From the NCBI GenBank assembly GCA_051294905.1, contig CM119372.1, forward strand, positions 35,590,001-35,654,000: a stretch of DNA of 64,000 nucleotides, in the 5' to 3' direction. The notes below the pieces were generated by a model, which saw only the letters and a program-made list of their open reading frames with translations, did not search any database and was not told the origin of the DNA. The DNA is from Botryllus schlosseri. Lineage: Eukaryota. The translations under genes were made by a program, and so were the position numbers. Positions 5,785 through 54,703 of this stretch are shown in pieces (position 1 is the first letter of the stretch; each line of letters starts with the position of its first letter).

Positions 5785-6150
5785 GAAGAGAGAGAGAGAG
5801 AGTCTTTATTAACATCGAACCAAAATACATAACAAACGGCAGTGATGGTGGTACAGAAAATATGCGTGCACAGTATTCGGTATTAGATAGGAATGATCGA
5901 TTAGACCGTGAAGGTCATCTAGTCTGATCACACCAGCATCAAACAGGTACACTTGACTCAGAACAGTCTGGCTGTAAAAAAATGTTTAGTTAGGAAAGGA
6001 AAATAGAAAAAAATTAAGCAATGGTAGCAAATGATCAATGAAGCAATGTCTGGGCGAGGTAGGGCAAGAAATAAAAACGAATTCATCCGAACCATCTAGG
6101 AGTGGAAATTCTATGGACGATAACTGTTATTGTCAGCGCGTTGTGTCGTC
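5785..6150 (-). mobile_element. 3' end fragment of a CR1/L2-like LINE (duplicate at ~13260-13625); 5' boundary approximate
   Basis: Minus strand ends AATAAAGA followed by (CT)n, the same tail architecture as the LINE ending at 46745. Confidence 0.55.
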
Positions 6151-6932
6151 ATATAAGCACGTCGAAGCATTAAGCGACGCCATCTGATCTCAGATTAGTG
6201 GCGAACGAAATATCGCATATGTAATCAATGCTTAGATCGAATATGTAATATGCAACTTCACGCTGTATCACTGGTAAACCCGTGTGTATAGCCGTGATGA
6301 GCGGGTAGTGCTTTTCGAGACTTCGAATCCCTCTGACAACTTTAGTGTCTGAGGAAAACTCCCTCCGACTCCGAAGAGTTCAATCCCAGACTCCGAGATA
6401 CTCCGATGAATCTCGTCAGTATCCGAAACACTGGCAAGCATGGTAATGTGTTTTACTAAATTATTGTGATAATTGGGTCGGCCTCAAAGTATTGTCTACT
6501 CTCCAGTCCCCGATTGCAGTGTAGATGGCTGATTTTTATGCACTTGGCAATCATTTCTGCATGTTACCCGTCATATTACAACTTTACAAGGTGTCAACTG
6601 ACTGTGTTTTGGTTTGTAATCATATTAAAGAGTGTATTCTGGTCAGGGCTATCCAAAGATATCGGAGACAAAAGTTAAATTATTAATTAATTGGAATATA
6701 CCTATATAAACAATGTACTCGTCGAGTACAGAGTCTTATGAAGTATGAAAAGCGGCCCGTCTACTCATTTTAATCCATAGACCTATGATTTATGCTACTA
6801 ATTCGATACCCTCTAATAACCGATATGATTAATTATATTCGTTTTTTTATTGAGCTAGTTTCAATGTTAACAACTGTAACTGCGTATTTGTATGCGATAT
6901 AATTTAACAATGGCATGTTCATTCATCTACAG

Positions 6933-7320: not shown

Positions 7321-7684
7321 GCCCTAAAAAAACGCTGTATGTGAGTTTTTCGATGCTAATCCTTGGATTATACTTGATCGGTGGATAATCCGAGAATTAT
7401 CAATGAAAAACTCACATAACACCGCTTCTACTGGTCGGAATTGACTCAAATTTGCTTTGCACCGTCTTTGAAGACAACTCAACAATTTCGTGGGGCTGGC
7501 AAAATAATTTGAAATTTATTTTTAAATTTTACCGAATAAATTAAAAATTTTAGTTGGATCTGCATAGTCTTATACTTGTTTGAATTGAACCAAATTTGGT
7601 GTGCAGCGTTTTTTAGGGTAACCCGACAATTTAATGACTGAATGGATGGAATCCGGGAAAAAAAGTTATTTTTGAACAGCCCTA
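7321..7684. mobile_element. Partial MITE of the TAGGG...CCCTA hAT family (right part also at 1-209)
   Basis: Right end TTTTTGAACAGCCCTA resembles the element at 49821-50426; flanked by ATGCATAT at 7313-7320 and 7685-7692. Confidence 0.65.
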
Positions 7685-10600: not shown

Positions 10601-13600
10601 TATAAATGCATACACAATGACACTGTCCAATGTCGCTGTCCGATTCAAGAACTATCACGAAAGAACGAGTATTTGCTCATCCGATTCCTAGCAACGATGA
10701 GATGGAATTTCTCGGCTCGTGCTCGTCATATTTACATGTGCAACGAAATCACGTTTTTATCCTGTCCCATTTCGAATAATACATAGTGATCATTATTTTC
10801 GAACCGTACAATTGGCCAACAAGGTTGTACTGGTGATGAAATTGCGGGTATGCCGAATACCCAGAATATTCATAGGCATATTTAGCATACCAAGGTTCAG
10901 CAGTCATGTAGGAAAATTTAGCATTGAAAATATGACTGTTCTGCTGTTAAATCCCAAGGAACATGGTTAGTCGGAAAAGGTAGCGTCAAAGAGGAAAATC
11001 TTAATTTCGCGATGGTCTGCTGTTGAATTATCTGAAGTCAGCAGATATGGTTGTTGCATATAATAGCATCTTTTGAAATAAGTCGGAGCCGGAGCTCCCC
11101 CTCAAATAACTGGCTCCTGCTCCGGCTCCGGCTGAATTTTATGTAAAGCTTCGGCTCCAGCTCCGGTAAAAATGCACGGCTCCGGGGCTCCGGCTCCGGG
11201 CTCCGGCTCCAAAGCCCTGCTAGTAACGGTACAAAATAAACGTTAACGAGTACATATTCGGTTATAAATAACCGAGAACACAACACACAACATTTATGAA
11301 ATATTTCAAGAGTGTAGAGGCGTTATGAGTTGATTCATCCGGAGCGCGAAAAGCTTTTACGACTAAACGAAACATAACAACCCAATGGTTACGTGACAAT
11401 TACCCACATCATCGGCAATGCCATGGTCACGTGTGTATATTTATCAGCTGTGAAGCAGTTCGAGCGATTTCAAGCTGCATATGGTAGCATGGTAGCATGT
11501 ATACCTCATTTAAAAATGTATGAACTATTTTCCAAAATTACAAAAATATTCGCGGCACACCGGAGAATCTGTGGTGGCACACTAATGTGCCGCAACTTAC
11601 AGTTTGGGAATCACTGCTCTACATAATAATTTTAATATTCATATTAAAAACACCTTTATTCGCACACAAATCAAATGGATCAAATGGATGAATGGCCGAT
11701 TGAATGCAGTTGTACACCGGTAATCGTAACCACAAACCGCGTCTAACTTCCGGGCAGCCACGATATAAGCTGCCATATCATTATGATCCCGTCGTTTCTG
11801 TCGCAGTGCGGCGAGCTGGTATTGCGTATGCAAATTGACGAGTACAAAATATTAAACTGTAATCAAATTCGTTCATTATAATAAAATTACCTATCAGGAT
11901 GCTACGGAGGCCGGGTATCTTTTGAATTACAAGTTATACAGCAATACGACCACATATATTTGCATTATATCCTGTATGTAACTATCATAATGTCTATTTG
12001 TAATTTGGATACAACGGTTCCGGATAGACGCCTACGCCTGTGTAATTTCCCGTGTATAATTGCCTTTTGGTCAGTTTTGTTAAATCTCTGAACCACATGG
12101 GCAATTTTCACCACTAAATTTGGTGTCGATCAGCCGCTTATTACTAAGGACGACTAGAGTTAGAATTTAATATTGCTTTCGGGTGGTTATAATGTGGCAT
12201 CTAAGCTGGGGTTACCATATTTCGGCAATCTGAAAAGAGGACACTTTTTCAAAATTTTCAGACTTGCAATACTGGAGTAAAATCCTGAAAATGGTAAATT
12301 TTCACGAATCTGTGGTTGATTGAAAAATAGGTCAATTTCCCAGCTCAAATCCCGAATTCCGGCTTTCTCTGAAATATTTCCGTTGGTTGTCTAAAAATAA
12401 GGTCATTTTTCAGGCTCAAGTCCCGAAAACCCCGTTGGACCGTTCCTTGGCCGCCGATTCCCTATATCGCTGTCAATTTCCACGCTCATTCAACCAAAAT
12501 TCTCAAAATAAAAGACATTTAGGCGGCCTCCGAGGACACCTTCAAATAAGTCAAATAGGGGACAAATCCTCGTAAAAAGGACGTATGGTAACCTTAATCT
12601 AAGGGTTCGACATTTGCTGTCTTGCGGGTTTATCCTACAACTATGCCATAAAAATGTTCTGTATAATACAAGTATTTTTTTCATTTACTCAGAATTCCGA
12701 TCTCGGGCCGCAGGAAATCTTCTGGAGGGCCCTATGTTTGACACCCGTGGCGAAGAATTTTCGATTGCCTTGCTAATCGTTCAAGCGTCATGTAGTGTTG
12801 CATACAACTTATGGTAATAACTCCATTGTTTTATTCTGTACAGGCCCAGTAATATGGGGGCGGTAGACGTGCCGTCATATTTTATGGCAAAGGGGATTTG
12901 ATCAACAGAAGGTAAAATTACACTGTTCTATAGCAAGGAAATGATTAATTAAATGAAAATATATATCTCGTGCATGGTTTCGAGCAACTAAAACCCAGCT
13001 CTATACACCGTCCGCTCATGTCAATATTCAGGTTTTTATAATGGCGTATTTATGACTGCTCTTCAAAACTAACATACTTGCTTGATTAATTTTCCAGGAC
13101 CGCGTGAAGTTGGCTTCTGCATGAAGTACTTTTAGACTGCTTCGAAAAGCTCTACTTCTACTCGTACTTGAGTCGAATTCTGCGTCACTATACTTCTAAT
13201 TGAGTAACCTCTTTGATTATTTGACCACCAGTGCTTAGGCTTGATATTCTTACATAATAGAAGAGAGAGAGAGAGAGTCTTTATTAACATCGAACCAAAA
13301 TACATAACAAACGGCAGTGATGGTGGTACAGAAAATATGCGTGCACAGTATTCGGTATTAGATAGGAATGATCGATTAGACCGTGAAGGTCATCTAGTCT
13401 GATCACACCAGCATCAAACAGGTACACTTGACTCAGAACAGTCTGGCTGTAAAAAAATGTTTAGTTAGGAAAGGAAAATAGAAAAAAATTAAGCAATGGT
13501 AGCAAATGATCAATGAAGCAATGTCTGGGCGAGGTAGGGCAAGAAATAAAAACGAATTCATCCGAACCATCTAGGAGTGGAAATTCTATGGACGATAACT

Positions 13601-14751
13601 GTTATTGTCAGCGCGTTGTGTCGTCATATAAGCACGTCGAAGCATTAAGCGACGCCATCTGATCTCAGATTAGTGGCGAACGAAATATCGCATATGTAAT
13701 CAATGCTTAGATCGAATATGTAATATGCAACTTCACGCTGTATCACTGGTAAACCCGTGTGTATAGCCGTGATGAGCGGGTAGTGCTTTTCGAGACTTCG
13801 AATCCCTCTGACAACTTTAGTGTCTGAGGAAAACTCCCTCCGACTCCGAAGAGTTCAATCCCAGACTCCGAGATACTCCGATGAATCTCGTCAGTATCCG
13901 AAACACTGGCAAGCATGGTAATGTGTTTTACTAAATTATTGTGATAATTGGGTCGGCCTCAAAGTATTGTCTACTCTCCAGTCCCCGATTGCAGTGTAGA
14001 TGGCTGATTTTTATGCACTTGGCAATCATTTCTGCATGTTACCCGTCATATTACAACTTTACAAGGTGTCAACTGACTGTGTTTTGGTTTGTAATCATAT
14101 TAAAGAGTGTATTCTGGTCAGGGCTATCCAAAGATATCGGAGACAAAAGTTACAATACTCCGAAAGTCTCCAAAAAAATATCTGTAGTAAACTCCGACTC
14201 CGCTCCGACTGTCACAAAATCGTCAAAACTCCGCTCCGAATCCACTTCGACTCCGCTCCGATGCCCATCAGTAGTGTATAGGTGTTGGCCAAATTGATGC
14301 CTGTCGACATGGCAGCTGAAAGTATGTTAATTTTCGAAACGCCCCGTTTATGTCCATGGAAACTATTATGCTGACTATTTTCATGGTTTTTGCATTGTAG
14401 GCTCCTGTTGCTGACCTCCATCGATAAGAAACGGATGCAGGCAGGTGCCTACACGGATGAATATTATGTTTTGCCTAGGTATGTTATGTTATGTTGTGCT
14501 ATTTTATGATATGTTATAATATGGAAATGAAAGTGGGAATGTAAATCAGCCGTATACACGCGGTAGGCGTGAAGGATCTAAAACTAATATTTTTCCGCGG
14601 GTTAATTCAAATATTGCAGTCAATCAATAGGTAACAATATCATGATTTCTGGGCCCACGGTAAGCAGGGAAAATATCGGATAGAGTACATAAACGTCAAC
14701 GCGTTACGATTTTGCAGTTGCGTGATTGACGGAGGAGAGTGTTGGCACAAG

Positions 14752-35411: not shown

Positions 35412-35638
35412 TCTTAAAGGCTACTCCAAGTTGTTCCGGTACCTTCCCATCTTTTCATTGTATCGCAGTCTTGTGTTTTGAAACGATGGCAATATTATTA
35501 AACCTGATTGATTGATTGATTCATTCATTCATCTGGGTTCAATACGTCACAGTGAGTTTTTGACATCATGGTGCTGCTAAGAAGTTACCCAAAAACACAC
35601 CACTTTATCTACCTGTACCAAATTTGTAGCCTGACAGG

Positions 35639-36062
35639 TATTGCGACGCAGGAATAGCGTATTGCGGCAACAAGCATTTCGTGGCTAGTCGGTCTTCCCA
35701 ATAGTTGCAATTGTACTGCAGTACGTCTAATCGTTTGATTGTTATTTAATTTGATTAGTTAATTTAATTGTTGCGTCGTCCGTTCTCGTTTTCCTTTATA
35801 TTCCACTGCTGCTGTTTCATTTTCTCCAATCGACTTCTATATCGGATGAGCAAGCAATCTTGCGAATCTCGCCATTTACGTATCATTATATACTGAACAA
35901 GCTATTCCATATTCTTCGTCTTTGGACTGCTTGTATTAGAACAGAAGATATTTGAGATACGCAACGCTTGCCGAGGTCCCATTGCTAGGTTTAGTGTGCA
36001 GAAGACAGGATCCCGACACCTGATAGAGCGCCACTCATTGAATCCAGTGCCGCGTCGGAATA
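35639..36062 (+). repeat. 5' LTR (424 bp)
   Basis: TATTGCGACGC...GCGTCGGAATA; matches 52850-53273 with 8 substitutions counted by eye. Confidence 0.95.
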
Positions 36063-39000
36063 ATTCGCAAGAAGCCAATTAAAGCCGATATCTTCAAGAC
36101 GTTCTTCGGCCGCATATACGTCTACATTCAAGACTCTGCTACCGTACGAAGATCGATCGACTCTGCTTGACACTAAACCTGCTAATATTTACATAGTTTC
36201 ATACGTTTGATTGATGTCGTTTGTGAAATCTCCAACGGATTCCCGCAAGTCTCCAACCTTAGCACCGACTTGGAAGCCACTAACTAAGATGACGGTCGAC
36301 GATTTACGATCAGAGTTACAAGATCTTGGTGAAGCTACAAGTGGGAGTAAAGCTGTGTTGACGGAGCGATTGAGAAAAATCCGCGATTCCGACAAACCCT
36401 CGCAAAAGAAAGAACCGAAGTCCTCTCCATCGACCGCCACCGAGAGTCCATCTGAACTGGTTATGCTTTTTCAGATGATGAAGCATCAGCAAGAAGCTGA
36501 CCGCCAGCAGCAGCAATTAGACCGAGAAGCTGCCGACCGCAAGTTTCAAATGCAGCTCGAAGAGCTCAAGCTGAAGCAAGCCCAAGACCGTGAGGAATCC
36601 GAAAGACGATTCAAGCTGCAACTGGAAGAAATTCGCCATAAGTCCGACAACCATCCATCGGCAAACAAAGGAGATTCATGTGTACCTGCGGTTATTCTAA
36701 GGAAATTTAGACGCATGAATACCGAAGTGGTCGAGTCTTTACAGGCGCTGGAAAATACATATAAAAATTCCATGTCCGCGGAGGAAATCAACGTCTTCAG
36801 ACGGTCGGTAGAAATAGCAATGACTGATCTGAAGGCATTCGTGGACTCGAAAATCGACCAGCTTGACGATGGTGATTTGAAGACTGAAATTATTGATGGC
36901 ACGAGAAGAGCGAAAGAGATTTATATGGTACGCATTCCTCTTGCCAATTCCAGATCTTCATCACTTAAAGCTGCCGAGGATGCTGAAAAAACTGCCGGTT
37001 CTCTACCCAATGGAATAGTCCCTCCTACATTCAACGGTGACATTTTGACCTTTCCTGCGTTTTGGGAGTCGTTCGAGCCGCTGGTTCATAACAATCCAAA
37101 GGTCAGTCGGTTTTATAAAATCTCTTATTTGAAAGCGGCTCTCAGAGGATCGTCGTCTGGCCTTCTCAATGGGTTCCCCTCGACTGCAGCGAGTTACGAG
37201 CCTGCCATAGACGCCGTCCTTAAAAGGTACGGAAGGAAACAGGCCATAGTGAGAAACCACATCAAAGACTTGCTGCAAGGTGAGAAAGTCGAATTTAAGA
37301 TCGATAAAGTCAGGCGACTTCTCGATGCCGCCACTGCCAAAAGGGCGATATTAACACAGTATGACGTTTCTTGGGACCAACTGTTCACACAGGTGCTAGA
37401 ATCTCAGCTGCCTGGTACGCTGCATGAACGTTGGATCAGGAAAATTAATCCTTTAATCGACAGCGATGAAGTTCCTGATTCGGAACTCTTATTTGAATTT
37501 TTGACAACCGAGGTGGCGACGATGGAATCCTTGCAGTCGCAGAGTGGGCGTCGTCCTACTGAAGCACGTGACAAGCCACCGCATAAGGATAAAATGGTTA
37601 ATTGTGGTGCTGGTGAAGTAGGAAAATCGTTTTCAGCACAGTCCCTGGTGACGCAATCCGTAACGCCATGCTGTAGCTACTGCTCGAGTGCTCATATGTT
37701 AAAATACTGTGACGAGTTTTTGAAATTGACTCCCTCCCAGCGAATGGCTGACTTGGTCATGAATAAGCCTGGGAAGGTATGTTTTAGATGTTTGTCTCCT
37801 AAAGGACACGAAGGTCATCCGAAGACCTTCCACCAATGTAAGGAGCGTTGTTCCTTTGCGGGATGTGGGAAACCCCACCACGAATTGCTACACGTCTCTG
37901 CGGAACCATTTGATGACGTTAAGTGTATGGTCTCAACCAGTGACGGACCATTTTCCGCTCCTGTCTTGCGAGATGCAGACATTGACACATTACTGCCTAC
38001 TGCATTAGGAAGCATCAACCACAATGGCGAAAGGAAACAGGTTAGAATCGCATTCGACTCCTTTTCCCAGAAGAGCTTTATCACTCGTGAACTTGCAGAT
38101 TCGTTAAAGTTATCACCAACTAAAAGTGATTGCCTGGACATTCGTGGATTCGGGGGTAATTCTGCTTGCTGTGTAGTAGACGTGGTGAAATTCACGCTGG
38201 AGTCCACTAATGGTCTCGAAAACGTTTGTGTTGAGGCTTACGTTCAAGAAGGCGTTATTTGTGCGACTTTGAGAAATGTAGATCTGCGCGCTCATCAAAT
38301 TTCTCACATAAACGGTCTGAACCTTGCCGGTCCCCTTCCAAGGAATAATGGGACCATTGATATTCTTCTCGGAGGGCGATACTATTTTTCGTTGATGCAA
38401 GGAGATGTGATCAGTCCGAATGTCCCGGAAATGGGGCCTTATGCGATAAAAACTATATTTGGCTGGGTGCTAGCGGGCCCTTGCATTAAACTAGAACAAG
38501 ATAAGAGTGAAACTTCTAGATGTCTACTTCTCACAACTACACCAAACGACGTTTCGTTAAAGTCAGATCCATGGCAGTCGTTAAATGACAAGTTAGAAAG
38601 ATTTTGGGATCAAGATAGCATCGGCATTCGTGATAAGGAGACTCTTCCGACTGCAGAGGAACGGGACGCGATGGAACAGTTCGAAAGGTCGGTTCAGTTT
38701 GACGGTGCTAAATACATTGTTTCCTTGCCATTCAGACGGAACGCGCCGGATTTGAAATCCAATTACCGCGAGGCCTATTCAAGATTGCTTTCAGCAGAGA
38801 AGACGATGCGCAGGGATCCTGACAAGTCGCGGAACTATGACGCTGCAATCATGGATTATGAGAAAAACGGGTTCTCGAGAAAATTAACGCAGGGGGAATT
38901 TGTACAGATTGGTAAGCTTCCTCATTACTTTGTCCCGCACCACCCGGTATTCAAAGAATCCAGCACCTCCACTAAGCTTCGCATAGTATTTGACGCGAGT

Positions 39001-39902
39001 GCACGAGATCGTCAAGGTATGTCGCTGAATGACTGTCTACTCAAGGGGCCTAACTTGTTACCCGACATTGCGTCTGTGTTACTGCGTTTTCGTACTCACA
39101 GGATTGCGCTCAGCGGGGATATCAAAAAGATGTTTTGCCAAACGGGGGTTGTTCCCGATCATCAAAGGTTCCAGTTATACCTTTGGCGTAATTGTGACTC
39201 TACTCGACCGCCCGATGTTTATGTTATGACCCGGGTGATGTTCGGCATTACCTCTAGTCCCCCAGTAAACACAGTACAGACCAAAGATGTAGAAAGCCGA
39301 GCCCGATATAGTAGATATTAGATCTCGGCAGGTCGTAGAAAGGGGGATTTTGTGTCGACTCAATTCAATGTCTTTTCCATGTCCTTCAATAATGTAAATA
39401 TTATGCAGATGCTACAGCCTTTAAACATGGTGAGTGGAATGTAGATCCTACATTAGAAGAAGATCCTGATATAATAACCTGTTTTCCACCACTGGGCATA
39501 ACCTGATCACGGCTGCGTACACACACCACATTATCTACTACATATTAATCACATTTGTGTTAATTTAATTGTAAACGAATTGGCAATAATGCCGTTGTAA
39601 AAAATGAAATGAACAAACGAACGAATGCCCGAAGAAAGAAACTGAAAACAGTCCGTATCATCAGGTTTCATCTTCTGATGAGCTGGATAAATAACCCTGC
39701 GGCCTTTTCTTTTCAACACCCTGCAGAAATAAAATGGAAATGACGATTAATAGCTAAGACATTCGTACTGCGAAAATGGCAGAGGTAGCGAGTAACGAAT
39801 GACTCCTACATTTTTTTCGCCCATACTTACTAAAATGGATTTGATTCTGAACTATTTCCACTCAAGTTTTCAAGTTTTATTATTATATTTTTCAATATTA
39901 TA

Positions 39903-40321
39903 TGACTAGAGAACTGACTTCAATCGCCACTTCTACTTGATTATCAAGATCAACGATGACTACTTCAGCACTCTTTGAAAACAGCCACTAACACAAAAAG
40001 AATTCTTGACTAGAGAACTGACTTCAATCGCCACTTCTACTTGTTTATCAAGATCAACGATGACTACTTAAGCACTCTCTGAAAACAGCCACTAACAAAA
40101 AAAGAATTCTTGACTAGAGAACTGACTTCAATCGCCACTTCTACTTGTTTATCAAGATCAACGATGACTACTTAGGAATCTTTGAAAACAGCCACTAACA
40201 CAAAGAATTCTTGACTAGAGAACTGACTTCAATCGCCACTTCTACTTGATTATCAAGATCAACGATGACTACTTCAGCAATCTTTGAAAACAGCCATTAA
40301 CACAAAAGGAATTCTTGACTA
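39903..40321. repeat. Minisatellite, ~4 copies of a 101-104-bp unit
   Basis: Unit TGACTAGAGAACTGACTTCAATCGCCAC...GAATTCT starts at 39903, 40007, 40111 and 40212. Confidence 0.95.
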
Positions 40322-42178
40322 AAATTTCTTCACATTCTGTCAGAAATGATCAATTCAACAATCCAAATGAATCAGTTATTTGGCAGCTAGTTGGAGAGAT
40401 ACATACTCAAGTCTAGAAAGCGGAATGATACTCTGCCTGGAAAGCTGAAGACCTAACAATATTGTGTACAGAGAAGAAAACATTTGAGTGGCGGCACTGG
40501 TATAGACATTAACAAATTATTAGAATTGACAGCAAGATAACCAGCAAGACATTAAAATGTGAATTAGTGCAGTTTCTTAGGCTGTAGTGATACTCAGCCA
40601 GTAATTGACCTAGCAGAGAGCAAAACGTTGTAAAAAAAGCGAGCGAAACCTCGGACAAATAATACGATAAAACATTAGAATCGACAGTCTTACTAGAAGC
40701 AGAATAACAATCATGAGGGGTTAGAGAACAGAAGCCCGGGAAGTGACCATCAGAAATTACTGCATACTGGCCGAACAAATCCATGACCACTAACAAATGG
40801 TCTTTTAATAGTCAATATTGATACCAAATGACACCACCCCTATTTCACCGCAACATTTAGCAAATACAGCGCTGGAGTCAACCTTATAAAGCGCTAACCA
40901 AACGCCCATTAGTTTTCCCACCTACTACTTCGCGCTTCGCGGATGGAAATACGCATTAAAGCGAATGGACGCGACTTGTCACACTCTTGCTATTTCTGCT
41001 CCCTTTTTCTCTTCCTTCCTCTTGAGGAGAGAAACAGTCGGCCACGTTTACGGATCGTGAATTCCCGGCTTAAGGGTGATTCTTCCTCCAATGGTCAGCA
41101 CCTTGAAAATTGAGAACAATGTTGTTGCAAAATGCATGACAATTTGAAAGTTACATCATTCTAATTATTCCAGTTATGGCCGTGAATCGTTACAAGTGCG
41201 GTAACCATAAGAATTATTACTATACTTCAACTACAAATACAATATATTGTATAAAATAATTACTAATTCTTTTACGTTGATCGAGTCCCAAATGGATGAA
41301 ATATGTCAAAGAGTTTGCTAAATTTTTTTGTATAATTTGACAGATTCCGAAATCTTCTCAAAGTGCACCTTTCAAAAATTTGATATCAAGACTCCCAACA
41401 TTTTACAATTCGAAGTTGGATGGCTTAACCAATACAAGCGAACAGTTTGTATCGCAATTGACAATTATGTAGAGAACGCTGCGAGACATGTGAGTAGGCC
41501 TACCCTAAAACGTTTCTGACATGGACATTAGGGCTCTTAAAAAATGACTTTTTTTCTCAAATCGTTCTGGCTACTTGATAAAATTGTTAGGTTACCTAAT
41601 TCAAGCCTACACACCAAATTTGGTTCAATTCCAACCAGTAACCGCATTGCTACAGGAAAAGAAACTTTCTATTTATTATATAAAAATAAATAGAAAAAGT
41701 TTGAAAATTTTCTGTTCACCCCATGAAAGTGTTAGGTTATGTATGGAAACGATGTTCATCAAATTTGGTTCGATTCAAACAAGTGGAAACGGAGTTATTG
41801 CCATCGAAAAATTCGGATTTTAATAAAATAGTATTTACGGTGGGCACCACTATAACAAATAATTAAAGAATTGTGTCACGCTGTCATACTGTTTTACGCA
41901 ACCGTTGTTATGCACTGCATTGTTGCTGTGTTCTGGCTCCATTGTTGTTATTTCTAAATTCGACATTAATGCGTCATAATTCTCCATCTGGTTTTGAATT
42001 CAACTCTGTTTTGCTTCCTTTATCGTGCCGGTAGCTCTTTATTAGGCACGCGAAAAGTTCTTCGGGTTTCAATAACGTTTATCATGAAGGTACTTTTGAA
42101 AGCAGTATTAAAATTTTGTACCACCAACCAGTTATTTAATTACTATTTATCTTCAAAGTAAATGCTCATTGCATGAAG

Positions 42179-42665
42179 CAGGGTTGTAAGACTCGAGTCA
42201 GGATTTTCTGTTGACTCGACTTGACTCAGGTCATCTTCTCAAAGTACTGAAATGACTCGACTCATTGCGCATGACTTGAGACTCAGACGGCCAAGACCGA
42301 CATTTCATGATTATTTCAAAGAATAGTACAGCAAATCGCTATTGGGATTTCGTTTATTGATACTGGTATTTGAAAATGCGGCCAGAAACTGCTAAAAGTA
42401 AGGAAAAATCGTATATTAAAAATGCGACCCACTCCATATCACAAAAAATGTATAAAAAGTTGGTTTAACAAGACTTAAATTGGAAACTGAGCAGCTAACA
42501 CAATGACTCTGGCTCGAGTCATAATACCATAACTCGGACTCGGCCCTCTGCTCGCTGACTTGGACTCGGACTTGACTCGGTGGTGAATTGAAAATGACTC
42601 GAGTCAAAACTATAAAAGTGAGATTGACTTGCGACTCGGAGCCCTGTGACTTGGTTACAACCCTG
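42179..42665. mobile_element. hAT MITE with GACTCG repeats
   Basis: TIRs CAGGGTTGTAA...TTACAACCCTG; perfect TSD GCATGAAG. Confidence 0.9.
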
Positions 42666-43498
42666 GCATGAAGCCTCAATAGTTACATGAGTGGGGTGAC
42701 TAGACAAAGAACACAGTGACATTTGCAGCATATCATGAATGATGAAAGCGTATTTCCCATTCTTTCCGACTCTGCTAAAATTTCACCAGACTGGCAACCT
42801 TCTTCATGATGCTTTTTGCTGACTGACCAATATTGTCGCCGCCAACGGTAAGAGTGCAAATGTCTGATATGTCAATATAGGAACAGAATTAGTTGACTGT
42901 TCATGACCGTCCACGTTCAGAGTTACATTTCAAAGATGCTAAAATAAGCCTAAATATAATCCAAGCAATACGATCGTCCACTTTGACTGACTGAATTTCT
43001 AAAAATAATAAACATGACACCTTGATAGCTTCCACATCTTACGTTTATATATACCGTCTGCTATCGGCAAGCATTTGAAAATAACAAAACAGATTCAACA
43101 TACCACATCTCTTGCAAAGGCTTTTGCTTTCATTCAATATGTCATCAGACTTCTTTAAATCCTCCTTTGTGGTGAGTGGCTTCGTTTTATCATATACAAT
43201 CTATGGCGGAATAAAAGTTTCGGATAAGTTCTAAAACGAACACAATTTTCCACACAAAAGTCAATTGCCACACGAAATACCAAATGCTACGGTCCAATTT
43301 TACAAGGTATGGCGAGGTAACGTAGTGGTACCCTCCATTATAGCTAAACACCAATGAATTGCGAGTTCGAGCCTGACACGTCGACTCCATAATTCCTACC
43401 GAAGTGTTGGCCGTTTATCTAGGCTCCTCCTCGCCATCTGATCCGCATAGCCATGTCTTAAAAAGCCTAGGAGTGGGCCGTGCTATAAGTGGGCAGAT

Positions 43499-44357
43499 GG
43501 TTGCCGATGAACTCGACACTTGGTGAATTCGGCCCTCGGGAAATTTTGTAAGAAGTGTATTAACAGCTATTAATATGAATTATTAAACTAATAATAGTAT
43601 TATCAAGTGATTCGTCAATCTTGTAAGGAGGTCAGGGCATCCGTAGATCACGCAGTCACGGCGTGATTAGATCACGGATTGCGTAGCCGCGGGAAATAAC
43701 GCAGCGCTCATATACCGACCACGCGCGGTCTGCTTGGAATCGATGGCGTGAGTGACGGGCCTGTGTCGTGTAAGTTTTGAGAAGATGGATCTTGGCGTTG
43801 TATGTGAGATCGAAACTGTGGAAGATCAAGCGGCGCTTCTTCGTTTATCGATCACGACAAGCCAGTGTTCCTCATCAACCAATGTTTCGCATGATCACGT
43901 CAAAATAATTTATTTTTTGCCTTTGAAGAGACGATTCCACTCTGGGGTGAGGGTGTCTCGATAACAGGGTTGAAGGATCCCAAGATTACGAGATCTACCG
44001 CGAGCCACGACACGTTTAAATTTCCTTTTTGATACTGTTCATTCATATTAAATGCATTTCTAATGCGAAGGTGTTCTAGTGCCAATTCCTCCAAGGGCCG
44101 AGTTCACCAAGTGAAGAGCGTCGCGTTATTTCCCGCGATTACGCAATCTGTGATCTAATCACGCCGTGACTGTGTGATCTACGCATGCCCTGACCCCCGT
44201 ACAACATTGACAACCACTCAAAGTGCCAAGTTCACCGGCAAACATTCCAGTAACCAATCATGGTGACCGGTACCGCTACGAGATCTACCACGGCCGAATT
44301 CACCAAGTGCCGAGTTTGTGCGGCCGAATTCACTAAGTGCTGAGTTCACTGGTAATC
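43499..44357. mobile_element. MITE with 8-bp TSD and internal inverted repeats (Merlin-like, tentative)
   Basis: TSD GGGCAGAT on both sides; imperfect TIRs GGTTGCCGATGAACTC / GAGTTCACTGGTAATC; internal IR ~43615-43705 vs ~44120-44210. Confidence 0.7.
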
Positions 44358-45344
44358 GGGCAGATACGGAATGATAATAATAAGAACCGGCCTAGTGTAA
44401 AATGACCAGTGTAGTCGAACCACCACCATGAACACCACAAACAAACAAACAAACATCTAACATGAAAAAGAAATTACCTTTGCAGCCTCTGACAAACACA
44501 GTTACCATTGAAATCAGCAATTTAGGTCTTATTCGAAAGCAGAATAACAGCTGTTTTAGCGGACATATCAAATCAAATGTTGGAAAGTTCATGTAAATTA
44601 GCCCAAAATATTATCTTACTGTGACCATATTCTATCAATATGGTCTGGCTAGCCAAATTCTCTGGGCCAACATAAACAAGCTGTGTTTGGTTTCAACGAT
44701 TATTAATCTTGTCACTGGATTCGAGGTATAATTGCACTCAAATATCAAATTTTGCTCCATTAATCAACATCAAGTTGAAAATGTCCATTCTTGCACCAAC
44801 TTGTATAAAATCACGAATCAGTGTTCCACAGGTATGTATCTATATGACTTATATACCTAGAAAATTCAAGCATAAATATTATGATATACCGTAGGTATAT
44901 AGGTACCGGTAATTCAGATGTTTGAAGCGACTTGGACAACTAGATAATTATAGTGGTCCAATTTCACTAAATTAGAGCGAAATGCCAGCAATATAATTGT
45001 AATCTAATTCGGGAAAAACGGTTTAGCTCTAATTCTAGCCTGGAAAAGCTGAAACTTTTCTATAGTTGTCTTCACCTGTTTGCAGAAAGTCAAACAGCTC
45101 TAGGCGTCATCTACTATACAGGCAATTCGAAATACCCCGTAAGCTATATGCTACTGCGTATATACCTTTAACCCGCTACCTCAGTCAGTCACAATTCCTA
45201 TATATTTACGGCATTTACCATACAGAAAGAGCGAACTATACCTGGCTGCGACCTGTTGCGCGTCAAATCTTTGTCCGGCGCGATGACGTAAAATTTGAAT
45301 CGCCGAAATATTCTAGAAGTCACGCATCGATAATCATTTTCCTA

Positions 45345-46718
45345 AACGTACAACATCTCATTGAGCTCATTGACTCTAAAAATGTTGCCACTGGCGTGTT
45401 TTTAGATCTGAAAAAGGCATTCGACTGTGTCATTCATTCCAAACTAGTTGACAAACTTGAATTCTATGGTATACGTGGACTTGCAAAAATGTATTTCGAA
45501 TCTCACTTAAAAAATAGGAAACAATTTGTTCATATTGGAACAACGCGTTCACAATTACTACCCATACAGACTGGTGTACCTCAGGGATCCGTTCTCGGGC
45601 CCCTGCTGTTCATAATTTACATCAATGATATTGGTCATTTAATTGACAATGACATCACACTGTTTGCTGACGACACCAGCCTAGTTATACCCGGTAAAAA
45701 TTTATCTGATGCATTTGACAACATTAACACTAAGCTATCGACAGTGTCAAAATGGATGGCATCTAACCAACTTCAGCTCAATGCCTCCAAAACCAAAACT
45801 CTCGTATTTCATACACAAGTGAATCGCAGTAGAATTATAGTAAATAACGCACATCTTGATACACATAAAACTGTTAAATATCTTGGCATTATCATTGATG
45901 ATAAACTCGGATGGTCTGATCATATCAACAATATAAAAACTAAAATCTCGCGTGGTGTCGGGGCTCTCTATCGCCTTAAAAATTTAATTCCTCATCAAAC
46001 TCTCAGATCAGTCTACTATGCCTTAATTCACTGCTATCTCATTTATGGGATCCTAGTTTGGGGACCTGCTGCGAAAAAACATCTGCAGAAATTGCAAGTC
46101 TTGCAAAATCGAGCCATACGAATTCTCTGTCGGAAATCTAGATATGAGAATTGTAATAGCATGTATCGTAGCGTTAGAATATTGAAAGTGGAAGACATTT
46201 TCAAATTTGAGGTAATGAAATTCATGCATAGCTATCATCAGGGTGAACTGCCACTATATTTTGATAATCTGTTCAAGATACCTTCAGATACCCACCAACA
46301 TCATACCAGATTTTCTTCTAACTTGTCTCTGTCTGTGCAACACCACTCTACCAGTCTAGTGCAAAATTCAATCAGTTTTATTGATGTCAATGTTTGGAAT
46401 AAGCTGCCACCTAATCTCCGCAATTTAGACTCTTGTGCTTTCAAAAAACAATGTTTTGAATCTCTTATCTCTAACTACCGCTAAATTGTATTTGCGTTGT
46501 ATTTCAAATTGGTCCATGATACTGTGTCTTATTTTCCCTTTCGTTCGTTAGTTTATTTTAATTTTTTTTTCATTAGTTATCGACTGTGAAAATTGCTCCT
46601 GTCCCGGGTGGCTCGGCTCTGAAGACTTTGTCATATCGAGCCTCCCGTCTACCTTGCATGTCGCATTTCACTGTAACATTTTTGTAGCGTTATGTTGATA
46701 TGTAATGTATACGAATAA

Positions 46719-46745
<27 letters not shown>
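45345..46745 (+). mobile_element. 5'-truncated CR1/L2-group LINE: open RT C-terminal ORF (to 46484), 3' UTR and (TC)n tail
   Basis: FLDLKKAFDCV, GVPQGSVLGPLLFIIYIND, LFADDT, KYLGIIID motifs; AATAAAGATTCTCTCTC tail. The first ~90 aa of ORF 45066 are read-in from flanking DNA. Confidence 0.9.
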
Positions 46746-46750
<5 letters not shown>

Positions 46751-47588
46751 TTATTTAGTTATTCTCTGAATAAAACTATTAGCCATACTCGTTGAACATG
46801 CGAGATTACCGAAAGAGCGAATATATATATAATGAAGATCATATATATCAGAAGAAAACAAAACTGATCGACCTTAGAGCAACAACACGAATATACAACA
46901 CCGGTGACATCCTCACGCAATAAAACGAAGGGAGAACATTGTTTTCTAATTGATAGAACGAAGCTACCGCATGAGATCGAACAAAACCGGATAGGAATTC
47001 ATCGTGATTGAATGTACCGACAAAGTCATCCCCTCTACGTATTTTAGTCATACCAACGAGAGATAGAAAATTTGCATTATTAGGTTAACTACCTTATATA
47101 ACGAAGCCTAATGCATGAGATGGAACAACACCGAGTATGAATTTATTCTGATTGAATATAACCACAATACCATCCTACTACGTATTTTAGACATTCCCTC
47201 GACACTTGGAAAATCAGAACCTAATCGAGATGATCCCGGATGATCCTTTTACGGTTTTGTGTTTGCTGGGGGCCGTTTCTAGTAATTCAGACCATTCTGC
47301 ATCACTCTCGTTTGCAGAGAGGGGATGCTGAAATTTCAAACATAATTGAAAGAAACATGGACGTAGACGATGTGCATCTTGGTGGTGATAACGTCGACGA
47401 AGTACTCGCATTGCAGCGCCGATTAGTTGATTTTTTTCGGGCAGGTGGATGGACACTAGTCAAGTTCGGATCGAATAGCCGGGACTTGATCGAAAAAATC
47501 CCGCAGAACGCGAGATTGCCGGACTGTGAACTGGATTTGGACGATGCTAAGTGTGGCGAAGCTTCTTCGTTAGGGCTGAAATGGCATA

Positions 47589-48550
47589 GGGGAGATGTGG
47601 TACCGATGGATCACTGGGACCGAAAATACTTTGAAAATTCTCTATGATAATTCCATGATTACATTCTGTGAACTTGTCTACAATTGCATGCTGGCAAAAT
47701 CTTTCCTCTCATACAAAAAAATTCGACGTGTGCGAGCCATGGGGTCTCTCACAGATGTTTTTTGTTTTGGGGGGTGTAAAGTAAATTTAGATCGACACAT
47801 ACATTTTTCTTTGTAACCTTCAACACGAACAAACCAGCAATCATTTTTATTGTGAAGTTTAGGGCTTGTATCAGGCTGTATATTGGCACCTATTATTTTT
47901 TTCAGTACTTTCCTTGAGTGGAAATTTTTTCGATTCATGTATAAACTTCGTAGGGTGGGGACTGATGATACAATAGCCAAATCAAGCAAAATAATCAAGC
48001 ATACTAATCATGAAACAAATGAAACATGCCTACGTACAGAAGATATTTATGTAATAATTGCATATGATGTTTTATCGCTATAACGAGGTATTTGGAAGTC
48101 ACACAGTCGACTTTCGGGCAATGTGTATGTACCCTAAAATTCATAGGTCCGAGCACAAATCGAAACGTGATTTTATGACAACATTTGAGTTAATATTTAT
48201 TCTATGTTTTGACGGTTGCGATCAAACATTCTACTTTGGCTTCCTGTAGCTTAGATTATAATACTGAGCAAGAAAAGTTGTCACATCTGAGTTTTTTAGG
48301 GAATGTGTGTCATAGGTCCCCGGGTCGTGTGCCATTGGACCCACCCGGTGGGGACCGATGACACGTTCGAGCAACGAATTTTGAACGTCGATAAATATTT
48401 TTCGAAAAGACGGATATTCATGTATATGTGCGCGATAGGTAGAGCTTGTATCGAAGTGCTGCGCCAGCAAAAGATCTGCACTTTTCGGCTGAACATTTTG
48501 GGGCCAGCGATCATTTTCCAGTTTTTGATCCATCGGTACCACATCTCCCC
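47589..48550. mobile_element. Non-autonomous DNA transposon with 25-bp TIR and TA TSD
   Basis: GGGGAGATGTGGTACCGATGGATCA...TGATCCATCGGTACCACATCTCCCC, flanked by TA; removal restores LGLKWH-TLNDLMY. Confidence 0.9.
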
Positions 48551-49820
48551 TACTCTTAATGACCTGATGTATTGTAATGTGACTCCAAAACTCTGCGAGC
48601 AAGACAAATTGGTTACTAAAAGAACCATGCTCAGCAAAGTCAGTCAAATTTACGATGTTTTCGGATATTTTGCAGCCTTTGTACTTCGCGTCAAGATTCT
48701 TCTTCAGGATTTGTGGAGGAAGAAATTGGATTGGAACGATGAAGTCGATGAAGTCACAGCCGCCAAGTACCGTCGATGGACAGAAGAACTGTCCGCGCTT
48801 GAATCTATAAAGATACCAAGGTATCTATTCGTTGGGCTTCGGCGTTTGAAGAATATTCAGCTTCACGGATTCGCCGATGCTTCTGAAGCTGCTTACGGCG
48901 CCGTCGTATACATCAGAGCCACGGACGAGGAAGGTACAGTAGTGATTCGTTACCTGATGTCGAAAACGAGAGTCGCTCCTTTGAAAGCTATGTCCGTTGC
49001 GCGACTAGAACTAATGTCAGCAAATTGCCTCGCTAAACTAGTTCTGTATTGCTTAGACGCTTGGTCCTCGGTTCTAACTGTCGACAACATTTATTTGTGG
49101 TTAGACTCGGAGATTGCTCTTGCCTGGCTCGCCAAACCGAGTACATACTGGAAAACCTTCGTGAGAAATTGAGTGCAGGAAATACATGATCTCGTCTCGC
49201 CGGACGCCTGGCGTCATTGCCCCGGTTGCGAGAATCCAGCAGACCTACACAGTCGCGGCATGAGTCTACACGACTTGAAGTCGAGTAGCGTATATTGGTA
49301 TGGACCGCATTGGTTAATTGAGGATGAGTCATGTTGGCCAACCAAAATTCTCCCTAACAATATGACTCTTGACGCCCCATTGTTGGATAGAGCAAATAAT
49401 GTCCTTGTCGCTCAAATTAAAGATTCGGTTCCATTTTTTGAGAAAGATTACCGCGACTTCAACAAGATCGTTCGTATCACCGCGAGAATTCTTCGTTGGA
49501 AGAATCGCAACTTTTCGACATTGGACCCACATTGCAACGACGACCTAATTGGACCGAATGAATACAATCTTGCTAAAGATCACTTATGGCGCCTTGTCCA
49601 GAGATCCGAATTCGCGCGCGACTTCGACGATCTTCAAAGTGGTAAAGACGTGTCGCGTAAGTGCATATTTATCAACATGGACCCTCAGTACGATGATGAT
49701 CGCAAATTGATTGTAGCAGGAAATCGTTTGCTACTATCCGATTTACCGGAGTCCGCTAAACATCCCGTAATACTTCCTTCAAAACATTCTCTCGTCGAAA
49801 AATTCATCTTGTATGTTCAT

Positions 49821-50426
49821 TAGGGTTGTTCAAAAAAAACTTTTTTTTCCAAATCTCACTCGCCTACTGACTAAATCGTCATGTTGTCCAAGAAAACGAT
49901 GCACACCAAATTTGACTCAATTCTAACCAGTCACGGCCGTGCAATCTTGAATTGAAATTTTTCATTTATTAAAAAAAATAAAAAAATAAAAAATCTCAAA
50001 TTTTTCTGTCAACCCCATGAAATTGTTGAGCTGTCTTCAAAGACGATGCAAAACAAATTTGAGTCAATTCCGACCAGTAGAAGCGGAGTTATTCGCGTTT
50101 TTCGTTGATATTTGTCGGATTATCCTTGAGCCGGGGATTATCAACGAAAAACTCAAATAGCTCCGCTTCTACTAGTCGGAATTGACTAAAATTTGTTTTG
50201 CATCGTCTTTGAAGACTGCTCAACAATTTCATGGGGTTGACAGAAAAATTTGAGAAATTTTTTTTTTAATTTTTTTAATAAATTAAAAATTTCAATTCAA
50301 GATTGCACGGCCATGACTGGTTGGAATTGAGTCAAATTTGGTGTGCATCGTTTTCTTGGACAACCTGACGATTTAGTCAGTAGGCGAGTGAGATTTGGAA
50401 AAAAAAGTTTTTTTTGAACAACCCTA
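49821..50426. mobile_element. Almost fully palindromic 606-bp hAT MITE
   Basis: TAGGGTTGTTCAAAAA...TTTTTGAACAACCCTA with ~300-bp inverted arms; perfect TSD ATGTTCAT; removal restores YVH-ATNCH. Confidence 0.93.
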
Positions 50427-50968
50427 ATGTTCATGCTACGAATTGTCACTCTCCACAAGATACCACTATTGCGATCGTCCGCGAATGTTACAGTTTCATT
50501 CATATTCGAGGCGAAGTAAGGCGAGTCCTACGTAAATGTATCACATGTCGACATTGGCGCACGAAACCCTTGACCCAGAAAATGGGAATATTGCCCCCAG
50601 AAAGAATTCGTGAAGCTCCTGCATTTTCAGAAGTGGGTCATGATTTCACGGGTCCCGTTTATATCGACACTGGTACGAAAACCATGCAGAAGGCGTACAT
50701 CTGTCTATTTACCTGTCCTCACAGTAGGATGGTTCATTTTGAATTAACGAACAGTATGTCGACTGAAGAGTTTTTAGCTGCCTTGAGACGCATGATGAAC
50801 CGAAGAGGTTGGTGCAGAGAGATAATCAGCGAAAACCAGAAAACTTTCAAGAAGGCCGAGAAGATCATCGGACTATCCATCCGTGCGTTATTCAAAGGCA
50901 CTGCCGATAACGAAAAATTGCAGAAGTTCATGACTGACAACGGTATTCACTGGAAATACATAGTAGAG

Positions 50969-52249
50969 CAGGGGTTCTCAACTTTCCTTGCATAACGGGC
51001 CGCATCTTAACAGCAAAAACCGCTGCGGGCCGCAGAACATTATTACGGTATATTTGTGGACTACTATTATATTTAGGCTAATATAACCTATTTACCAGTC
51101 GCATATGGGCATTTAGTACATTTGTATGTATTCTACAGCATTAATGGACGGCGTTCATAAGCTTTCAGTTGCTGTTTCTATTGAGATTATGTCATCTTCC
51201 GACGGAACAAGTAAATCCCTTCATGAAGCGTGCATTGCATTCGTTCACAAGTCGGTATGTGCACCTTCAAACCCTTGCACCAGAGAACTGAACTCCCTGT
51301 TTCAATGCGTTAGCGAATAAGTATAAAATTACGGTAACTTTTTCGTTACAGAGGCCATTGTCACTTTGAGCTCTCAGTGATATGAGAAGAAGTCTCATGT
51401 TCGGGGTAATTTCTGAGCAAACCAATCAACCCTTCTCCTTTCCTTCCATGGCTGATGCCCGGCACCAATAGTTACAGAAGTCAGCTTTGACAAGTTGATG
51501 TTGTTTGCTAGTCCCCTCTCCCCACGTTTGCCCGGCCAGCATTACGTCTACAAATATATCGACTCCGATAAAATACTCCAATACAATTGGCGTTGCAATG
51601 TCCGTGGATTTTATCCAATACTAGGTTAAAGTAGTCTACGCGGCAACGTGTTTCAAAATATGCGACAAAAGATCAACTGACATTGCTGTTACTCTTCTTG
51701 TCACGGTCGAATCAGACAACTGCAGCTTCGAAAATTGTTAGGTGAAGTTGTCCTTGCTACTAAATTCCGGAAGCAGCGGAGATTCGCACAGTATAGTAAC
51801 GTTTTGTTGAAAACACACCCTTTCTAGCAGATTTCATGGGTTTAGCGATATACCAAGCAATTTTGAACCATTCGTCTTTAACGTCGTCGGCAATCTCAAC
51901 AATGCCTCGAAATATGGATTGCTGGGCCTGAGACCTAGCTAGCAACGCTTTTTTCTAAGATCAGGTGATATGTATAACTCCAGATGGAACTGCCCGAATA
52001 GGCGAAGACCTATTCAAAGCAATAAGAAATCTAAACTCAACCATATATCAAGAAACCAGAACACATTGAAGAATGAGAATAAATCAAACGAAACAGAGAC
52101 GATGCGATAAGAGAGCTTAAGTATAGCAAATTAGTATGTAACAATACTGTGCCGGCAGTAATTGCGATCATATTGAAAGATCTCGCGGGCCGCAGAATAA
52201 GCGTCTGCGGGCCGCATGCGGCCCGCGGGCCGCGGGTTGAGAACCCCTG
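50969..52249. mobile_element. hAT Charlie-type non-autonomous element inserted in the BEL integrase
   Basis: TIRs CAGGGGTTCTCAAC...GTTGAGAACCCCTG; perfect TSD TAGTAGAG; GCGGGCCGC subterminal repeats; removal restores WKYIVE-RAPHRG. Confidence 0.93.
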
Positions 52250-52827
52250 TAGTAGAGCGTGCGCCTCATCGCGGAGCGTTCTACGAGAGAATGAATCGCT
52301 CTCTTAAAGAGCCGCTTCGGAAGATATTGGGTAAGGCCAGTTTAACCTACGTTGAGATGTATACCGTTCTTACAGACATCGAATGTGCCCTCAATCAAAG
52401 ACCGCTGACCTATTTGGGTGCAGACTCCGGGAATCCACAGGCTATTACGCCGGCTCATCTTTGCATTGGACGTCCGCTTGGTCAACTGCCGTACTTACCT
52501 ACAAGCGCCAACGTCACAAAGCGGTTCCGATATCTGCAGACCCTGCTCAAACACTTTTGGACAAGGTGGAGCAAGGAGTATCTTCCTTCGTTGCTTCGAC
52601 GAAACAAATGGAACATTCAACAAAGAGCTCCGAAGATAGGAGATGTCTGCCTTATTGCAGAAGACGGGCGCAACAGACCGAGTTGGCTCACGGCACGAGT
52701 CATCAATACGATTGAAGGCAAAGATGGCCTTGTAAGGACGCTCAAGTTGAAAACGGCAAAAAGCATATTGACTCGCCCCATTCAGAAAATTCATCTGTTA
52801 GAACCTGTTGACTGACTACTGTCGGTC

Positions 52828-52849
52828 AAGGGGGGGGGGGGGGGGAGGA
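52828..52849 (+). other. Polypurine tract
   Basis: AA, a long G run, then AGGA directly before the 3' LTR. Confidence 0.9.
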
Positions 52850-53273
52850 TATTGCGACGCAGGAATAGGGTATTGCGGCGACAAGCATTTCGTGGCTAGT
52901 CGGTCTTCACAATGGTTGCAATTGTACTGCAGTACGTCTAATCGTTGGATTGTTATTTAATTTGATTAGTTAATTTAATTGTTGCGTCGTCCGTTCTCGT
53001 TTTCCTTTATATTCCACTGTTGCTGTTTCATTTTCTCCAATCGACTTCTATATCGGATGAGCAAGCAATCTTGCGAATCTCGCCATTTACGTATCATTAT
53101 ATACTGAACAAGCTATTCCATATTCTTCGTCTTTGGCCTGCTTGTATTAGAACAGAAGATATTTGAGATACGCAACGCTTGCCGAGGTCCCATTGCAAGG
53201 TTTAGTGTGCAGAAGACAGGATCCCGACACCTGATAGAGCGCCACTCATTGAATCCAGTGCCGCGTCGGAATA
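52850..53273 (+). repeat. 3' LTR (424 bp)
   Basis: Direct repeat of 35639-36062, followed by TSD ACAGG. Confidence 0.95.
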
Positions 53274-54703
53274 ACAGGTATGATTTGGGCAAAGCATCAT
53301 CGTCTTTTCAGATATATTGCTGGAGTTAGGTATACGTAGGAGTCGCGTTTCTATCAATATATTGAAACCGAATATCTCCAAACGAACGCTTTCGATCGAT
53401 TCCCCTGTAGCGCTTTCGACGGGTGAACTACATACCTATAGATGACTGTATGCTCTCCAATGAATGTTTCATGCGAATTGATCAAGCTGAAGGACGTAAT
53501 AGTGGATTGCAGATGCCGCATTACCAGCGAGCGGCCCGAGGGCGAAGATATCGTGCGTTTCGTTATAGTTAGGTAGAATATCGCGATGAATTGCCTTCTA
53601 ACCAGAACGTATAATGCCTGAGAAAAGAAATGTATAATTATCATGCACGCGTGATATATCTATTGTTGCTATTTTATTAGGTTGCAGAATTGACAGTAGT
53701 AACAAAATTTGTAGTTGATTTCAACCGTTCATATTGAGCCTTTTCATATTGAAACGTAGCTATGGTATAACCGGTACATTGTATTCAGCATCACATCACA
53801 GACTGATGGTTTTCGTCTTTTATAGCTGACAAAACGGAATCTAGCTTTGCACATTCGAATCGAACAATCATGTTCATCGCTTTGATTACTGAGTAGCCTA
53901 AGCACTGAAATCCTTCCCGTGGCTTCTAGCATACGTAAACTGATTCATGGATTTTATCGTGAAAGCGAAATAGGATCACTCAATAACCTTAAGTCGGAGT
54001 TGATATGTTCTGTTACGGATTTAGCAGCAATACTTTTACTGCTAGCTTCCAGTCAGATATCATTTGGACCAAGATTACTGCATAGGCCAAACTGTAGCCG
54101 TGATTCCAGACAATTTGAAATCGCCTGATCCTGCAAACAGTTTCGTGTAAGATTCGGAAGTATGCGAATCCGCTCTATATGCAGGTAAATTAAACGTTAC
54201 TTTTGTTCTTGTTTCATTATGCAACAAAGATATTGTTTTTAGACAACCGCCCGCAACTTCTTATCGCAAAAAGTTCGTTGACTTCCGCATTTCTGATGAT
54301 TTTCGATATGCGATAGTCGGTAAGTCTACCAATTTTGATTGCACTCTCGGACTCACTTGGGAAATTTGATTGGTTAATTTATTGATCGACATTTGATCAC
54401 GTTATCGAATCTGACTATCGGCTGCTATGTGAACAAAGTTACGGTCGCAACCGCTTCGATGCAAAGTCTTGATCATTTCAATTTTCAAGTGCCCTTTGAG
54501 GATTGGCAACTCGAGTTCCATAGCAGAGTACATCTCTTTTTTAACAGCATATGTCATAGTACAACTAATAAGTATAATAAATTCGACTTCTGCAACTTCT
54601 TTAAAATACCATGTTAAAATCGAATCCAAATCTGGTAAAAATCTTCAATCTCGCATTTTACACGCCCGACATTAATGCGCACTGTTATTTTCATACAATA
54701 AAG

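Follow-up and report, generated by a model that had tools for sequence, protein, structure and literature searches.

Candidate self-primed reverse transcription in BEL/Pao retrotransposons of Botryllus schlosseri

Self-primed reverse transcription is established only in the Tf1/sushi branch of the Ty3/gypsy retrotransposons with long terminal repeats (LTRs), and is predicted in a few plant lineages. The Tf1 element self-primes with 11 bases of its own RNA, as described in PMC7175516 and PMC5341516, and the survey by Neumann et al. lists self-priming for Tf1/sushi and predicts it for the plant elements Tcn1 and TAR (PMC6317226). Here we analyze a 64,000-nucleotide stretch of the Botryllus schlosseri genome (assembly GCA_051294905.1, contig CM119372.1, forward-strand positions 35,590,001 to 35,654,000), hereafter the window, numbered from its first base. 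It contains a BEL/Pao LTR retrotransposon that, judged from its sequence, probably uses a short piece of its own R region as a Tf1-like self-primer and belongs to a lineage in which this piece would have replaced the tRNA primer.

Classical BEL/Pao elements (Belpaoviridae, genus Semotivirus) are primed by host tRNA, and the profile of the family by the international virus-taxonomy committee (ICTV) describes a primer site of 18 bases that can pair with the 3' end of either tRNA-Arg or tRNA-Gly (PMC8742986). Achilles has a tRNA-Tyr primer site (PMC4580426). The window element resembles classical members such as Tas and Achilles in its domain set and order, its LTRs, its 5-bp target-site duplication, and its polypurine tract. 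The 18-base tRNA-type site of the ICTV profile is absent both from the window element and from three other families of the same genome described below. De la Chaux and Wagner, in their survey, nowhere use the words PBS (primer-binding site), primer binding, tRNA, or self-prim (PMC3118150). The original prediction for this locus, made from the DNA alone, had suggested, subject to a literature check, that self-priming was undescribed for BEL/Pao, and our literature search likewise turned up no report of it, although most subscription journals, including those with the original BEL-like papers, were outside the scope of the search and an older description is possible.

Three groups of described elements offer the closest comparisons. 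Like Tf1 and Tf2 of Schizosaccharomyces pombe and the Tf1/sushi group, the window element has no tRNA site and its own LTR RNA can pair just past U5, over 11 bases in Tf1 and 10-11 here; in Tf1 there is also a stem-loop in U5 beside the primer site, needed there for priming, and the window copy has a hairpin in the same place. Unlike the Tf1/sushi elements, which are Ty3/gypsy chromoviruses, the proteins here are those of BEL/Pao (DUF1759, Peptidase_A17, DUF5641), the host is an animal, and the RNA start, the RNase H cut, and priming are predictions. The plant elements Tcn1 (Ty3/gypsy) and TAR/Houba/Osr-1 (Ty1/copia) are similar in that a primer site complementary to their own LTR was predicted in silico, but they belong to other superfamilies and hosts, and that survey left out BEL/Pao (PMC6317226). 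In the fungal GalEa copia elements, the tRNA site is replaced by a 'conserved hairpin site', so that, as here, a conserved self-complementary sequence stands in the place of a tRNA primer site (PMC5445492). The GalEa sequence forms a palindrome locally, at the end of the LTR, and has no counterpart inside the LTR; the partner here lies 205-264 bases upstream in the LTR.

The features that bear on priming in the window copy are as follows.

35639..36062, + strand: 5' LTR of 424 bp, aligned with 52850-53273, its limits set by the target duplication.
35858..35867, + strand: LTR-internal 10-mer TCTTGCGAAT, the candidate self-primer and predicted start of R, 205 bases before the LTR end.
36028..36053, + strand: U5 hairpin GCGCCACT / AGTGCCGC (arms 36028-36035 and 36046-36053), just upstream of the primer site.
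36063..36072, + strand: candidate primer-binding site ATTCGCAAGA, which abuts the LTR end and pairs with 35858-35867.
52850..53273, + strand: 3' LTR by LTR alignment, carrying a copy of the 10-mer at 53069-53078.

The first 10 bases past the 5' LTR, ATTCGCAAGA, are the exact reverse complement of TCTTGCGAAT inside it, and the complement stops at 10 bases with no extension at either end. This match, its position, and its retention in the 3' LTR had been reported in the original prediction with every coordinate right. That a TGG-initiated PBS is missing after the 5' LTR was also borne out, since direct reading of the sequence finds no TGG in the leader 5' of approximately 36268. For the chance test, 2000 dinucleotide shuffles of the LTR were scored for a complement of at least the observed length starting 0-4 bases past the LTR; 8/2000 shuffles of the window LTR gave a complement of 10 bases or more, close to the earlier chance estimate, which had considered offset 0 only. 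When 35858-36084 was folded, pair probabilities in the primer helix were 0.82-1.0. The U5 hairpin exists at the coordinates first given for it, with 7/8 pairs rather than a perfect stem because of one C.C mismatch in the window copy.

The 495-Mb assembly was examined by two DNA searches and an alignment-based read-out of the junctions between 5' LTR and leader. The window family is represented by 28 distinct junctions, of which 26 are perfect complements and 2 have one mismatch. The combination of TCTTGCGAAT with ATTCGCAAGA (C/G type) is found in 23/28, including both mismatched copies, where the mismatch is on the LTR side only (a G.U wobble in L015 and the 3'-terminal base in L081). The remaining 5/28 (L005-L008 and L085) form a sister subfamily with LTRs approximately 82% identical to the window LTR, and these combine TCTTGTGAAT with ATTCACAAGA (T/A type), a compensatory double change of the kind that the original prediction had proposed to look for among family members. 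Mixed C/G-T/A junctions account for 0/28. Two junctions with an A-type site, L072 and L073, belong to truncated LTRs and were excluded from the 28. In the co-variation alignment, comprising 27 copies with L015 omitted owing to its cut leader, the primer helix is 99.6% paired, one pair being changed on both sides in 5 copies, and the 10-mer TCTTGCGAAT is otherwise invariant. The U5 hairpin is paired in 97.4% of cells over the same 27 copies, with no compensatory change.

A Peptidase_A17 search of the genome detected at least 150 places, many within open frames of 1900-2150 amino acids. Three further families were picked without knowledge of their primer sites, and each is represented here by one element (L093, L095, and L091). 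Their LTRs and first 650-850 internal bases have no detectable similarity to each other or to the window family. In each of the three, the LTRs are of the TG..CA form and flanked by a 5-bp target duplication, and the start of the leader is complementary to a mid-LTR site; a TGG primer site was found in none of them.

L093: leader GTCAGAAACTT (11 bases), offset 0, LTR partner 212 bases before the LTR end.
L095: leader GTAGATACAG (10 bases), offset 0, LTR partner 231 bases before the LTR end.
L091: leader GTTAACAACA (10 bases), offset +4, LTR partner 264 bases before the LTR end.

The observed complement length at offsets 0-4 was reached by 1 (L093), 3 (L095), and 14 (L091) of 2000 shuffles. At leader offsets 15-379, an LTR complement of at least 10 bases is present in only one of the four families, that of the window, where it corresponds to a second helix discussed below. 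Folds from the LTR site to the primer site in the four families gave 0.2-1.0 per pair, mostly above 0.9, as is expected for terminal complements.

For the L095 family, search patterns that fixed the flanks and left the center open gave 25 junctions and 68 LTR sites; 23 of the 25 junctions could be linked by position to a site approximately 230 bases upstream, and 2 had no listed partner. Among the linked junctions, 13/23 combine GTAAATACAG with CTGTATTTAC and 8/23 combine GTAGATACAG with CTGTATCTAC, while the remainder are one mixed junction (A-type site, C-type LTRs) and one point variant in the site. The L095 family therefore holds a second, independent compensatory change. The mixed copy, at G000 C3:33259989-33260253, has an A-type primer site and C-type sites in both LTRs. 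No co-variation was found in the L093 family (38 junction hits, of which 36 are identical, 1 is a variant, and 1 is unrelated; 5 linked pairs) or in the L091 family (6/6 linked pairs complementary); the sites of both are nearly invariant and so are uninformative on co-variation. As in Tf1, then, an own-LTR complement of about 11 bases is kept by selection, measuring 10-11 bases in four families and marked by two compensatory changes.

As a control, a profile of the A17 region was used to collect 79 BEL/Pao loci from metagenome contigs, many on long contigs of another organism. Sixty of the 79 loci, of approximately 3.8 kb or longer, were screened; in 31 the match was enclosed by a pair of LTRs, and 17 of the 31 also showed a 5-bp target duplication. 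These 17 fall into about nine LTR types. In every one of them a TGG-initiated site with the sequence TGGTCCTTCGAGCCGGA, or one close to it, starts 1-5 bases past the LTR, and none has an LTR complement longer than 7 bases. No tRNA matching the control primer site was found within the control loci. The other 14 LTR-paired loci comprise 8 with the same motif but unsure boundaries and 6 that are unclear. One of these six, L131 (a metagenome contig of 7727 bases), has 563-bp LTRs and lacks both features, the TGG site and the LTR complement, after its 5' LTR; its 3' LTR reaches the contig end, so that its boundaries are provisional. Thus, the screen recognizes tRNA-type BEL/Pao elements, and because 17/17 controls have a TGG site without a complement, the self-complement is no general property of BEL/Pao LTRs. 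The four Botryllus families differ in this respect both from the 17 controls and from classical BEL/Pao elements.

By analogy with Tf1, priming could proceed as follows. The genomic RNA would start in the LTR at 35858 or within 1-2 bases of it, and its first 10 bases, UCUUGCGAAU, would fold back approximately 205 bases onto 36063-36072, directly past U5. The element's RNase H would then cut the RNA 3' of the paired stretch, and reverse transcriptase would extend the freed 3' end through U5 and R to make minus-strand strong-stop DNA. Plus-strand synthesis would later copy the primer back, rewriting the primer site in each cycle and so keeping the complementarity. A copy such as the mixed one of the L095 family is expected if the primer is the source of the primer site while the 3' R is the source of the LTR site. 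In standard LTR reverse transcription, the sequence used in the second transfer is made when plus-strand synthesis runs over the primer as far as its 5' end. An unpaired 5' flap on the primer would block that transfer, and the complement is only 10-11 bases in all four families, compared with 11 in Tf1; on this reasoning, the 5' end of the primer should lie at the start of the LTR site, as it does in Tf1. The base directly 3' of the LTR-internal site is C in 4/4 families (35868 in the window, and in L093, L091, and L095). Together with the constant length of the complement, this C may reflect a cleavage preference, the number of families being small.

The core of the original prediction, that the element lacks a tRNA site and pairs with its own LTR in the manner of Tf1, is strongly supported by the 26/28 perfect junctions, the co-variation, and the three further families; the transcription start, which the original prediction placed at 35857-35858, and cleavage, priming, and copy-back would follow from the likeness to Tf1. 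Several observations nevertheless count against self-priming. The caveat about the promoter, raised at the outset, stands: the distance from the TATA-like CTATAT upstream to 35858 is no more than some 20 bases, and a second TATA-like motif about 60 bases upstream is missing from some subfamilies. Reads from four RNA runs of the same species, collected over 35500-36400 at a likeness of at least 85%, number 9, 2, 7, and 67, with no pile-up of starts or ends. All reads over the LTR and leader come from relatives, none being 99% or more alike, and some relatives' reads run from U3 through the site, which is as expected for 3' LTR transcripts and is uninformative. The stability of the whole R-U5 fold is that of shuffles (z = -0.83). 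Each compensatory change is a single evolutionary event, and the four self-pairing families come from one genome, three of them chosen by the analyst with their primer sites unseen. A genome search for tRNAs (RF00005) scored the 63 best hits, with 35 distinct sequences, nearly all tRNA-Lys, and is thus a small sample of the host tRNAs. Finally, a second helix between U5 and leader also co-varies.

35986..35997, + strand: U5 arm of the second long-range helix, pairing with 36170-36181.
36170..36181, + strand: arm of the second helix on the leader side, the helix as a whole bridging the primer site; its sequences in the window are AGGTTTAGTGT / ACACTAAACCT.

One pair of this helix is A-U in 26/27 aligned copies; the window copy is the single exception, with both bases replaced to give G-C. 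The helix is paired in 97.2% of cells and cannot nest with the primer helix. Its co-variation indicates that the leader is structured, and co-variation alone is evidence of pairing and not of priming; the case for priming is made because the complement sits at the LTR end and there is no other primer site.

The alternative that survives best, which we nonetheless consider unlikely, is that the pairing of R with the leader is a 5' untranslated region structure serving packaging, dimerization, or translation control, and that the primer is a host RNA, such as an internal tRNA fragment, at the same or a neighboring site. The second helix fits such an explanation, being a conserved leader structure unrelated to the primer position, and so does the small, tRNA-Lys-dominated host sample. 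Yet the primer site differs in each of the four families and is complementary to that family's own LTR, so that each would need a separate host primer. In two families the host primer would also have to change along with the subfamily. The stronger argument is thus one of parsimony: a host primer is a poor fit to four distinct sites matched by their own LTRs and to the shift of two of them together with the LTR. Moreover, no site begins with TGG, Rfam and tRNA scans returned neither an Rfam family nor a tRNA in the region, and a pattern combining the 10-mer with a T-loop motif matched a single place across the genome, which is not tRNA-like. The pairing also begins at the first base past the LTR, where a primer must sit, in 3/4 families.

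A second alternative, to which we give still less credence, takes the LTR-internal site as the end of R, that is, the poly(A) site, so that the primer would be an RNA 3' end, either that of the element itself or that of an RNA packaged with it. In its favor, inspection of the LTR sequences by eye turned up no canonical AATAAA downstream of the site. However, AATAAA is equally absent from the 10-30 bases upstream of the site in all four families, and a polyadenylated RNA would not terminate in paired bases. In one single-cell RNA run, U3-containing reads from relatives extend beyond the 10-mer by 30-40 bases or more, with loose ends behind 35878-35879, which means that the transcripts concerned do not stop at the site, although the reads are few and of unknown strand. 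The broken, approximately 17.6-kb state of the window copy might suggest that a dead element matches itself by chance, or that a normal tRNA site was lost from this copy by deletion, which the original prediction had itself named as a possible undoing, but both are refuted by the 28 family junctions, the analogous junctions of three other families, the shuffles (1-14/2000 per family), and the two compensatory changes.

Self-priming by the element's own R region thus remains the reading we prefer, and the rest of the window copy identifies the element to which it applies.

35634..35638, unstranded: 5' copy of the target-site duplication ACAGG, 5 bases repeated at 53274-53278, outside the LTRs.
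36211..39321, + strand: open frame in which Pfam recognizes Gag, by a SAP domain and DUF1759, and a protease-like region (DUF1758).
45066..46484, + strand: reverse transcriptase fragment (RVT_1), by Pfam, with approximately 5.7 kb without BEL/Pao frames between gag and RVT_1.
48300..49172, + strand: Peptidase_A17 (Pao) domain fragment, Pfam E 1.6e-46.
50384..50995, + strand: integrase core fragment (rve), under the Pfam cut-off (25.6 vs 32.6 bits).
52201..52815, + strand: C-terminal Pol fragment (DUF5641), by Pfam.
52828..52849, + strand: polypurine tract AA-G16-AGGA, directly 5' of the 3' LTR, read from the sequence.
53274..53278, unstranded: 3' copy of the target-site duplication ACAGG, read from the sequence.

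By its proteins, the element belongs to the BEL/Pao group (Belpaoviridae) of LTR retrotransposons, because ordered Pfam domains extend across the open frames of 36211-52815 in the BEL/Pao order: Gag/DUF1759, protease, reverse transcriptase, Peptidase_A17, integrase, and DUF5641. Its structural features, 424-bp LTRs, a short target duplication, and a G-rich polypurine tract, are also those of BEL/Pao. A tRNA primer site is a descriptive and not a defining character of the group, so its lack leaves this membership intact. The Ty3/gypsy chromovirus Pol that marks the Tf1/sushi group is not what Pfam gives for the window element, which is BEL/Pao; the element thus appears to work like Tf1 without belonging to the Tf1/sushi group.

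The window copy itself is dead and degenerate. Its Pol is broken into at least 6 separate frames, and it spans 17.6 kb, compared with approximately 6.8-9.2 kb between paired LTRs in relatives. The 5' and 3' LTRs differ by 8 mismatches over 424 bp each, and the LTR termini are TATT..AATA in the window and TGTT..AACA in relatives. The stretch of approximately 5.7 kb without BEL/Pao frames that parts gag from the reverse transcriptase (39322-45065) includes a tandem repeat of 4 copies of 101-104 bp at 39889-40321. Elsewhere in the window, a 6.7-kb tandem duplication (1-6680 and 7476-14156) has 99.94% identity and a spacing of 7475 bp, and no open frame of at least 250 amino acids was found in positions 1-35600.

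At least 7 gag-only elements of approximately 2.9 kb have an unrelated upstream U3 and the same R-U5-PBS-leader as the window family; one is formed by L013 with L030 (G000 C15:19702437-19705288), and there are at least 6 similar pairs. Their Gag (SAP plus DUF1759) is 74% identical to that of the window. The SAP domain opens Gag both in these relatives and in the window (36280-36379, Pfam E 1.3e-8). The gag-only elements are likely non-autonomous riders on the autonomous family. In a tree of the C-terminal part of Pol (approximately 200 columns), the self-pairing families fall on one side of a branch with weak support (64/44), host and group being confounded, and a single origin of self-priming in these families is possible. 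With some reserve, we lean towards the view that a BEL/Pao lineage whose families number four or more, have unrelated LTRs, and may share one origin, together with the gag-only riders that share its R-U5-PBS, gave up tRNA for self-priming.

If this is true, self-priming would have arisen or been kept in all three superfamilies of LTR retrotransposons, and would occur in animals. The BEL/Pao RNase H would be able to cut an RNA-RNA duplex, and the element would be independent of the host tRNA supply. Self-priming would also escape those host defenses that use tRNA fragments against primer sites. For annotation, pairing of the primer site with the element's own LTR would provide a rule for BEL/Pao elements that tRNA-based finders score as lacking a PBS. 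The compensatory changes and the one mixed copy would then be a natural record of the rewriting of the primer site from the primer.

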